Positions 10,001 through 11,428 of a DNA stretch of 64,000 bases are shown here, one piece after another. The notes under the pieces are model-generated. The model was not told where the DNA came from. It was given only the letters and a program-made list of their open reading frames with translations, and ran no database searches. Origin of the DNA: Eledone cirrhosa (Eukaryota); contig OZ024742.1 of NCBI GenBank assembly GCA_964016885.1, positions 20,646,001-20,710,000 of the forward strand, written 5' to 3'. The position numbers and the translations under genes were made by a program. How positions within the stretch are numbered: position 1 is the first letter of the stretch; each line of letters opens with the position of its first letter.

Positions 10001-10039
<39 letters not shown>

Positions 10040-10081
10040 CGTAAAATAAGAAAATTATAAAATTAACTTACTAAAATTTAA

Positions 10082-10160
10082 TTCCAACTAATTAGTTTCT
10101 GAAAGGGAATAAACATAGTTTCCGAAGAAACGTACGGAGAAGCCTTTCGTCATCAGGGAA
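10082..10160 (-). ncRNA. Variant type I hammerhead (521-bp family, inverted copy)
   Basis: Minus strand: UUCC-CUGAUGA-C-GAAAGG...CCUUUC-A-GAAA-CUAAUUAG-UU-GGAA. Confidence 0.7.
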
Positions 10161-10585
10161 GTCTATTCTCAGCTAAGTTTCCAGGCAATACGTGGACACA
10201 GGGAACTTATACAAAAATAATTCAGTGGATGGAAAAAAGCAAAGCGTGGACTAAATTCCAAGCCATTGATAAAATCACTGCCTACTGCGTCGGTGGCAAA
10301 TTCAAAAGAATCAATCACGTAACAAATTATTTTGTCGAGCAAAAATTGGCCAAAACTGCTACTATAGTAACGGTCCGGCTGCTGTCTTCTTAACAAACCA
10401 CTCTTCACTGATTGACCTCGATGTCACGTTATTGATTCTTTTGAATTTGCCATCGACGCAGTAGGCAGTGATTTTATCAATGGCTTGGAATTTAGTCCAC
10501 GCTTTGCTTTTTTCCATCCACTGAATTATTTTTGTATAAGTTCCCTGTGTCCACGTATTGCCTGGAAACTTAGCTGAGAATAGAC

Positions 10586-10661
10586 TTCCCTGATGACGAA
10601 AGGCTTTTCCGTACGTTTATCGGAAACTGTTTATTCCCTTTCAGAAACTAATTAGTTGAAG
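10586..10661 (+). ncRNA. Variant type I hammerhead (521-bp family), stem I weakened
   Basis: CTGATGA at 10590 and GAAACTAATTAGTT at 10644; 3' stem I reads GAAG instead of GGAG. Confidence 0.5.
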
Positions 10662-11106
10662 TGAAATTTTAGTAAGTAAGTTAATTTTATAATTTTCTTA
10701 TTTTACGTCTCACATATTATTGTTCTGCATCCCCATGCATTGAACCACAAAGTTACTAAGACAAAACCTATATATTTGCTAGCATAAGTATGCATCTGTG
10801 TATATATATGTTACTAGATATACTACTTCGTTATAATTATCTCCAAATTATTTTGTCGAGCAAAAATTGGCCAAAACTGCTACTATAGTAACGGTCCAGC
10901 TGCTGTCTTCTTAACAAACCACTCTTCATTGATTGACCTCGATGTCACGTGATTGATTCTTTTGAATTTGCCACCGACGCAGTAGGCAGTGATTTTTTCA
11001 ATGGCTTGGAATTTTGTCCACGCTTTGCTTTTTTCCATCCACTGAATTATTTTTGTATAAGTTCCCTGTGTCCACGTATTGCCTGTAAACTTAGCTGAGA
11101 ATAGAC

Positions 11107-11185
11107 TTCCCTGATGACGAAAGGCTTCTCCGTACGTTTCTTCGGAAACTATGTTTATTCCCTTTCAGAAACTAATTAGTTGGAG
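11107..11185 (+). ncRNA. Variant type I hammerhead (521-bp family)
   Basis: TTCC-CTGATGA-C-GAAAGG-loop-CCTTTC-A-GAAA-CTAATTAG-TT-GGAG. Confidence 0.7.
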
Positions 11186-11428
11186 TGAAATTTTAGTTGT
11201 AAATTAATTTTATAATTTTCTTATTTTACGTCTCTCATATTATTTTTCTGCATCCCCATGCATTGAACTACAAAGTTACTAAGAGAAAACCTATATATTT
11301 GCTAGCATAAGTATGCATCTGTGTATATATGTTACTAGATATACTAATTCTTTATATATATATATACAAAGAATGAAAGAGAGAAGGAACAAAAGAAGGT
11401 GATAGAGATTGTGAACAGGCATGAGAGG

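Follow-up and report, generated by a model that had tools for sequence, protein, structure and literature searches.

A short tandem array of hammerhead ribozyme (HHR) units lies at positions 10030-11356 of the 64-kb window, that is, of the whole stretch of DNA analysed here, which is animal-like and carries many microsatellites and much retroelement debris. The array consists of one inverted 295-bp arm that stands head-to-head with 1.97 direct copies of a 521-524-bp unit (Table 1), where the period is 521 when measured from copy start to copy start and 524 from cleavage site to cleavage site. The direct units follow one another head-to-tail with 95% identity, the tandem arrangement typical of non-LTR retrozymes, and the unit resembles these elements also in being non-coding, poor in GC (35%) and, as far as its sequence shows, devoid of LTR, PBS and PPT. 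No long ORF is present in 10033-11350, as the longest stop-free frame of the doubled unit is 93 codons. The RT plus GIY-YIG ORF of an autonomous Penelope-like element (PLE) is likewise absent from this interval, and a tblastn comparison of the unit with one PLE-like protein yielded no match. A sequence-only reading had described an inverted partial unit and about two tandem units between (TA)n tracts, which the measured arm and copies bear out; the extent that it gave, 10033-11350, locates the array correctly, but we place the right end at 11352-11356.

Table 1. Features of the 521-bp array and of the loci with which it is compared.
Feature	Positions	Strand	Remarks
Unrelated 467-bp HHR array (comparison locus)	381..2832		head-to-head layout, (TA)n at both ends
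Left (TA)n target tract	9852..10033		last 4 nt (ATAT) common to the inverted arm 3' end
Inverted arm	10030..10324	-	295 bp = 0.56 unit; 3' end outward; monomer positions 286 to 60 from the cleavage site
HHR type I motif, inverted arm	10082..10160	-	predicted cut after GUU, between 10086 and 10085
Head-to-head inversion junction	10323..10324		2-nt microhomology (CA); ~97 nt between palindrome arms
Direct copy A	10323..10843	+	521 bp
HHR motif of copy A, decayed	10586..10661	+	predicted cut after 10657
Monomer RNA, 524 nt, inferred product of two cleavages	10658..11181	+	
Direct copy B	10844..11356	+	end = TATA common to the (TA)n tract, homologous to the 557-array 3' end
HHR motif of copy B	11107..11185	+	predicted cut after 11181
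Right (TA)n target tract	11353..11366		
Autonomous-type PLE 3' fragment	21668..22923	-	Cys-rich linker, C-terminal GIY-YIG endonuclease (22468-22923), 3' UTR; between (TA)n tracts
Sister 557 array, main arm	23129..33736	-	19 units; 3' end in (TA)n; contains exact 4-unit higher-order repeat
Sister 557 array, inverted arm	33736..34308	+	1 unit + 19 nt; end not in (TA)n

The 521-bp unit is homologous along its entire length to the 557-bp unit of a second array in the window. BLAST aligns the two at ~70% identity across ~1,040 bp (E about 1e-116 to 1e-132), and a global alignment has 405 identical columns among 573 (71%), or 405 among 509 when ungapped. The local score of 295 compares with a mean of 22.9 and a maximum of 33 in 200 dinucleotide shuffles, so the resemblance is not chance AT-rich similarity. 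Four blocks that had been quoted earlier as shared between clearly diverged units are all found in both families; the CACGTG block is altered in one copy, the one at the inversion junction, by a G>A substitution at 10321. In a tree of 23 copies, three rows of 521 type and 20 of 557 type form two clades with support of 100/100, separated by ~0.29 changes per site. These clades, together with inversion junctions and flanks that differ between the loci, support the earlier proposal of an independent insertion of a sister subfamily. The 521 and 557 loci, with the same 23 copies, are the only matches in the window, to which a custom covariance model adds one weak match (E 0.2, 5202-5299). The 467-bp array has no detectable relation to either unit (scores of 22, within shuffles), and the 0 matches to the 521 unit in a prokaryotic genome collection are uninformative for dispersion.

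Motif scanning and alignment reveal the same hammerhead motif in each 521 and 557 copy. Its 5' part comprises a 4-bp helix I, CUGAUGA, an unpaired C, and a 6-bp helix II that carries a long apical domain, and its 3' part an unpaired A, GAAA, a palindromic helix III and a GUU triplet. Hammerhead cleavage follows the NUH rule. Core boxes and three helices, as in a type I hammerhead in every unit, are present in all three 521-type copies. The sequence-only reading had named the array for hammerheads and displayed none; the motif is indeed present in each copy, but a short reading of CTGATGA-C-GAAA was rejected because it has no helix II and no partner for helix I, whereas the catalytic GAAA ~50 nt downstream of CTGATGA yields three helices. 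The scan counts 23 motifs in the window and 0 in 100 shuffles, and the best conserved stretch of the 521/557 alignment is its last 40 columns, which span GAAA and helix III.

Pairing is retained in 88 of 91 cells (96.7%), counted in seven distinct rows from eight aligned copies, versus 29-51% in slid controls. Compensatory double changes distinguish helix II of the two families (n=2; A-U to C-G and G-C to U-A). Since this covariation amounts to two families and two evolutionary events, and the model structure comes from the very sequences tested, the pairing is evidence that the fold is conserved but not that it is catalytic. A C.A apposition at the base of helix II breaks with the conserved G10.1-C11.1 junction; a G-C pair is invariant in all seven distinct rows, but is offset by one unpaired nucleotide on each side. 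Copy A has a G>A change at 10659 that mismatches helix I, and its helix II is degraded in the apical part. This copy fails the 4-bp helix I scan, and it is therefore doubtful that the locus today holds the two complete HHRs expected of an active element.

Thermodynamic folding gives a more reserved picture. Adopting the hammerhead fold is less favourable than the MFE by 2.5-5.7 kcal/mol for copy B and the inverted arm, and by 10.6 for copy A, and unconstrained MFE folding does not pick out the motif (z of -0.9 for B, -1.8 for A and +1.3 for a 557 copy). Helix III can form a 10-nt palindromic self-duplex between two copies, with a predicted energy of -9.0 kcal/mol. For published systems we refer, here and below, to the accessible parts of the papers cited: a dimer mode is described for metazoan type I HHRs (PMC4209133), and only one of nine predicted dimers was cleaved in vitro by the account of Li et al. 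2026 (10.64898/2026.07.22.740005). Self-pairing of the 524-nt monomer, an aged copy, is no stronger than in shuffles (-96.9 vs -92.6 +/- 4.8), while the 557 monomer reaches -141.1 vs -115.1 +/- 7.9 and the 467 unit -149.7 vs -93.6, with 30 mononucleotide shuffles for each. The 521 monomer thus lacks the strong self-pairing of the 467 unit and of the retrozyme circles that have been reported.

Rfam hammerhead models (clan CL00010) give 0 matches at the gathering score in the window, and none at E<=10 in 10000-11400. The compact, short-helix hammerhead of the 467 array is found by HH9 with E 4.8e-8, below the gathering score, whereas a motif at 47729 with a canonical core and a long helix II is missed too, which points to the length of helix II as the reason that the 521 motif escapes these models. 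Surveys built on such models may undercount these elements, and the 521/557 sister pair provides natural covariation for a hammerhead variant that Rfam overlooks.

When oriented by ribozyme strand, each of the window's three HHR arrays has a head-to-head layout in which the 3' ends face outward. Five of their six ends lie within (TA)n, and their inversion junctions have ~1-2 nt of microhomology. The arms of the 521 array overlap the (TA)n tracts by 4 nt (ATAT and TATA). Both the 521 and the 557 main arms enter (TA)n at a homologous TATA (521 position 175, equal to 557 position 196), a correspondence that comprises two loci only; the inverted arms of these arrays start ~13 nt apart in homologous coordinates and end at different sites. 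Classical linear twin priming leaves the 3' end of the inverted arm near the 5' end of the main arm, and is a poor fit to the gaps of ~130-200 nt seen here. Simple fold-back onto copy A is not favoured either, as the inverted arm groups with copy B (88/81, below starred support).

The direct copies with an inverted, 5'-truncated copy, the AT target and the fixed internal 3' end of the 521 array are the marks of a PLE-mobilised insertion. PLEs typically carry direct pLTRs next to an inverted one, most often in head-to-head orientation (PMC3846280, PMC8557442), and pLTRs can be mobilised in trans on their own (PMC3846280). A bias toward (TA)n is described for Naiad PLEs and toward microsatellites for Neptune (PMC8557442), and reverse transcription by an anole PLE initiates internally after nicking of AT-rich DNA on either strand (PMC11167929). 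The direct-plus-inverted layout, the (TA)n target and the TATA 3' end that recurs in the 557 array match these published features.

A candidate for the class of helper is likely displayed by the 3' fragment of an autonomous-type PLE, which adjoins the 557 array and is separated from it by (TA)n. Its GIY-YIG domain matches Pfam with E 5.3e-5, and its Cys-rich linker and the C-terminal position of the domain, judged by eye, suggest the label Neptune-type. The 3' UTR contains a putative HHR with a CUGAGGA core near 21970, an 85-nt helix II and a GUA triplet near 21867. No DNA homology is detected between the 521 unit and the 3' UTR of this PLE, the only one in the window (score 24, within shuffles), and the 557 unit likewise shows none to it. 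A protein search for a PLE helper returned one 714-aa match at 37% identity among longer proteins, and no match among proteins of near length.

We judge it probable that the 521 array is a non-autonomous PLE, or non-LTR retrozyme, that was inserted in one event; it was probably pasted into the AT repeat by the enzymes of another retrotransposon. A tandem donor would have been transcribed, and the ribozyme, probably acting as a dimer formed through the palindromic helix III, would have cut the transcript at GUU. A Neptune-type PLE would have supplied the RT-GIY-YIG protein that bound the resulting RNA, a circle or a multimer, nicked (TA)n and began cDNA synthesis internally, at TATA ~175 nt beyond the cleavage site. 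The inverted arm would come from a second cDNA, made by second-strand priming or fold-back, and the two arms would join through microhomology. The dimer would then be the product of insertion, which has since aged without expansion.

By sequence criteria, the 521 array classifies as one more non-LTR retrozyme family, with an atypical ribozyme. Like metazoan non-LTR retrozymes (PMC7229834; 10.64898/2026.07.22.740005), it has non-coding tandem units with one type I HHR each, GC of 35%, dimer-to-multimer arrays and co-occurrence with PLEs. Its unit length falls inside the range of 51-972 bp given by Li et al. 2026, but exceeds the 150-450 bp typical of retrozymes in Cervera and de la Pena 2020 (PMC7229834), and its HHR is nearer the 'minimal' type of PLEs than the canonical retrozyme HHR. 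The inverted 5' arm and (TA)n ends have no description in the accessible text of the retrozyme papers, and the word 'inverted' occurs 0 times in that of PMC7229834. The array does resemble EN+ PLEs of Neptune/Nematis type and their pLTR-only derivatives (PMC3846280, PMC8557442, PMC8969392), with which it shares direct and inverted 5'-truncated copies, microhomology at a head-to-head junction, an AT-microsatellite target, no discernible TSD and a fixed internal 3' end downstream of the HHR. Unlike EN+ PLEs, the 521 array lacks an RT/endonuclease ORF, its repeated unit is the whole element, and it has no autonomous partner in the window that shares its DNA.

The ribozyme itself compares best with the minimal hammerheads of PLEs (Cervera and de la Pena 2014, PMC4209133), which share its 4-bp helix I, enlarged helix II, extra nucleotide after A9 before the G-C pair, and palindromic helix III suited to dimers. 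It differs from their description in a second extra nucleotide (A) before GAAA that gives the C.A apposition, and in GUU, an insert of 8 palindromic nucleotides in helix III, and a helix II domain that spans 49 nt and includes an apical hairpin. The HHR satellite of newt and axolotl (Rtz_331/353; PMC7229834) likewise consists of satellite-like arrays of HHR retroelements, with dimer-dependent cleavage and, in one family, a mismatch at the base of helix II, but has shorter units and canonical helix sizes; we set it apart by description, not by sequence. In a literature survey with most subscription papers and older PLE reviews outside its scope, we found no account of inverted arms or arm-length phase in retrozymes, or of this HHR variant. 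Similar cores may stand among the HHR variant figures of PMC4209133 and PMC7229834, and similar families in the supplements to Li et al.

The copies of the 521 array have diverged further on average than those of the 557 array. Copies A and B differ by 17 substitutions in 506 sites (3.4%), and comparisons with the inverted arm give 9 in 289 (3.1%) and 7 in 292 (2.4%). The 557 units differ by a mean of 1.67% and a maximum of 2.89% over 45 pairs, calculated from 10 of the 18 full units with 8 units of a repeated block omitted; all 18 have a mean of 1.5% by another alignment. These values, and the decayed ribozyme of copy A, lend no support to the earlier suggestion of a dimer stage caught before satellite expansion. 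Rather, the 521 locus is a settled, slightly decayed short copy, and no satellite at birth. The distance between A and B is no smaller than that of either copy from the inverted arm, which fits a common insertion of all three followed by ageing; with three sequences to compare, inheritance from a mixed template may also be a source of their differences. According to Li et al. 2026, 75% of retrozyme families have at most 7 units, with monomers, dimers and multimers as regular classes, which implies that short arrays are a normal end state.

Signs of later growth are present in the 557 array. An exact 4-unit (~2,226-bp) higher-order repeat occupies about 23880-30550, with a lag-4 distance of 0 in 5 of 14 comparisons, and could be a very recent duplication or an assembly effect. 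Minor alleles follow a weak 3-unit phase (p=0.026, for one of three periods tested and one that was spotted before testing), and a 2-unit history is unsupported (p=0.76-0.93). Block duplication of this kind after insertion implies that short insertions can expand, but nothing marks the 521 locus as about to do so. Homogenisation could make the long 557 array look younger than its true age.

If a monomer or a PLE terminal fragment had been inserted and then duplicated locally as DNA, the 521 dimer would be on its way to a 557-like satellite. Local amplification from PLE termini and unequal crossover have been proposed (Li et al. 2026), the 557 array has its exact 4-unit repeat and weak 3-unit phase, and the HHR element at 47405-48091, with one unit and 31 nt, shows that near-monomers exist. 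However, the main arm of the 521 array is 12 nt short of two units and so offers no terminal redundancy to seed unequal crossover, a later duplication predicts a closer pair than A and B (3.4%) turn out to be, and divergence among the 521 copies exceeds that in the long array. We consider this history quite unlikely. An ordinary satellite spread by DNA events, such as reinsertion of an extrachromosomal circle or break repair, or a fold-back artefact of assembly, would make the similarity and the motif incidental. The exact 2.2-kb repeats of the 557 array could come from assembly, and fold-backs can arise in library preparation. A read chimera is nevertheless excluded by the 2.4-3.1% that separates the inverted arm from both direct copies, and three arrays from two unrelated sequence groups agree in their polarity relative to the ribozyme strand and in their (TA)n ends; with 23 motifs vs 0 in 100 shuffles, such an origin is highly improbable.

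A PLE might also have mobilised the array while the hammerhead motif was non-catalytic, acting as a protein-binding or folding signal, with the tandem copies derived from uncleaved multimeric transcripts. This alternative departs from our preferred explanation in the cleavage step only, and we hold it to be possible, if on balance unlikely. In vitro, HHR cleavage was dispensable for insertion by the anole PLE and itself required protein (PMC11167929), the min-HHRs of PLEs are described as cleaving poorly (PMC4209133), and the 521 motif combines an atypical core junction with a GUU triplet and an active fold that is not the MFE. On the other hand, the core boxes and the pairing of helices II and III show either no change or compensated change over ~0.29 changes per site, an active axolotl retrozyme tolerates a mismatch at the base of helix II (PMC7229834), and the 467 HHR, which Rfam recognises, uses GUU as well.

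For mobilisation by a PLE with ribozyme cleavage, arm lengths hint at the form of the template. Measured from its own 3' end, the excess of each arm over whole units is -12 (521 main), +43 (557 main), +19 (557 inverted), +19 (467 inverted), +100 (467 main) and 0.56 unit (521 inverted); with the TATA overlap counted, the 521 main arm moves to about -8 and the 557 main arm to +50. Four of six arms thus end within ~45 nt of a whole unit number (~60-nt window; binomial p about 0.002), and adding the 47405-48091 element (a hit) and a 630-bp array (a miss) makes this five of eight (p about 0.0008), values that are a lead only, as the window was picked after seeing the data and the arms of one locus are not independent. 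Each arm would tend to stop on meeting its own starting point, despite differing start sites. Because where an arm stops depends on where it began, and not on a set position within the unit, the stops are explained most simply by a circular template on which the RT runs into the cDNA that it has already made. We tentatively propose, as a possibility short of probable, that the arrays bear the mark of reverse transcription by a rolling-circle mode, templated by circular RNA that the ribozyme had produced, with the RT-endonuclease of a PLE priming each arm separately in (TA)n. Circular templates have been proposed for PLEs and retrozymes (PMC4209133, PMC7229834).

In the accessible literature, the mobilising enzyme and the circular RNA template of animal retrozymes have so far been inferred from co-occurrence and pLTR similarity. 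The non-coding arrays described here bear PLE-type insertion marks directly, in the form of an inverted 5' arm, a (TA)n target and a fixed internal 3' end. If the circular reading is true genome-wide, it would constitute DNA-level evidence that PLE proteins copy retrozymes from circles; the inverted PLE arm would then stem from two-strand priming, and the long-helix-II hammerhead with a C.A junction would count as an active variant to which standard models are blind. Scored genome-wide, the phase of arm ends offers an inexpensive way to tell circular from linear templates.

Several other insertions share the (TA)n surroundings. The element at 47405-48091 (+) has one 656-bp HHR unit with a 31-nt terminal repeat, a (TA)n end and, at 47729, the canonical core with long helix II. 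Members of a family with an HHR-like CUGAAGA core and a ~200-nt tail occur at 9369-9635 (+) and 35342-35601 (-), with a relative at 36485-36644; the (TA)n end of the first lies just upstream of the 521 array. A further family consists of short palindromes in (TA)n whose spacers measure 8-10 nt; it is represented at 9649-9851, 63164-63355, 302-352, 62753-62882 and 37080-37191. Three of its copies end at one CCTAT site and three ~80 nt further, like two PLE-tail RT starts, and one copy adjoins the left (TA)n tract of the 521 array. Further short palindromic insertions are found at 29-142 and 3008-3355, the latter ending in (TA)n. At 35131-35312, a near-perfect hairpin inserted between (TA)n tracts folds back at a hammerhead-like core with a GUU triplet, and related sequences are at 8836-8920 and 61470-61513.

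The fourth tandem array of the window, at 48151-49595, has a 630-bp period and 2.29 units between (TA)n tracts, and a relaxed scan detects no hammerhead core in it. Three ~1.67-kb repeats at 50104-55237 each combine (TA)n with two short unique pieces, one of which recurs inverted at 46687-46901, and a 93-bp tandem repeat of five units (7485-7948) has a related inverted copy at 57266-57410. An apparently intact two-ORF LINE at 13474-18702 (-) encodes APE, RT and zf-RVT domains and has an open frame of 1,156 codons; a broken relative that is ~80% identical to it occupies about 58200-61340 (+).
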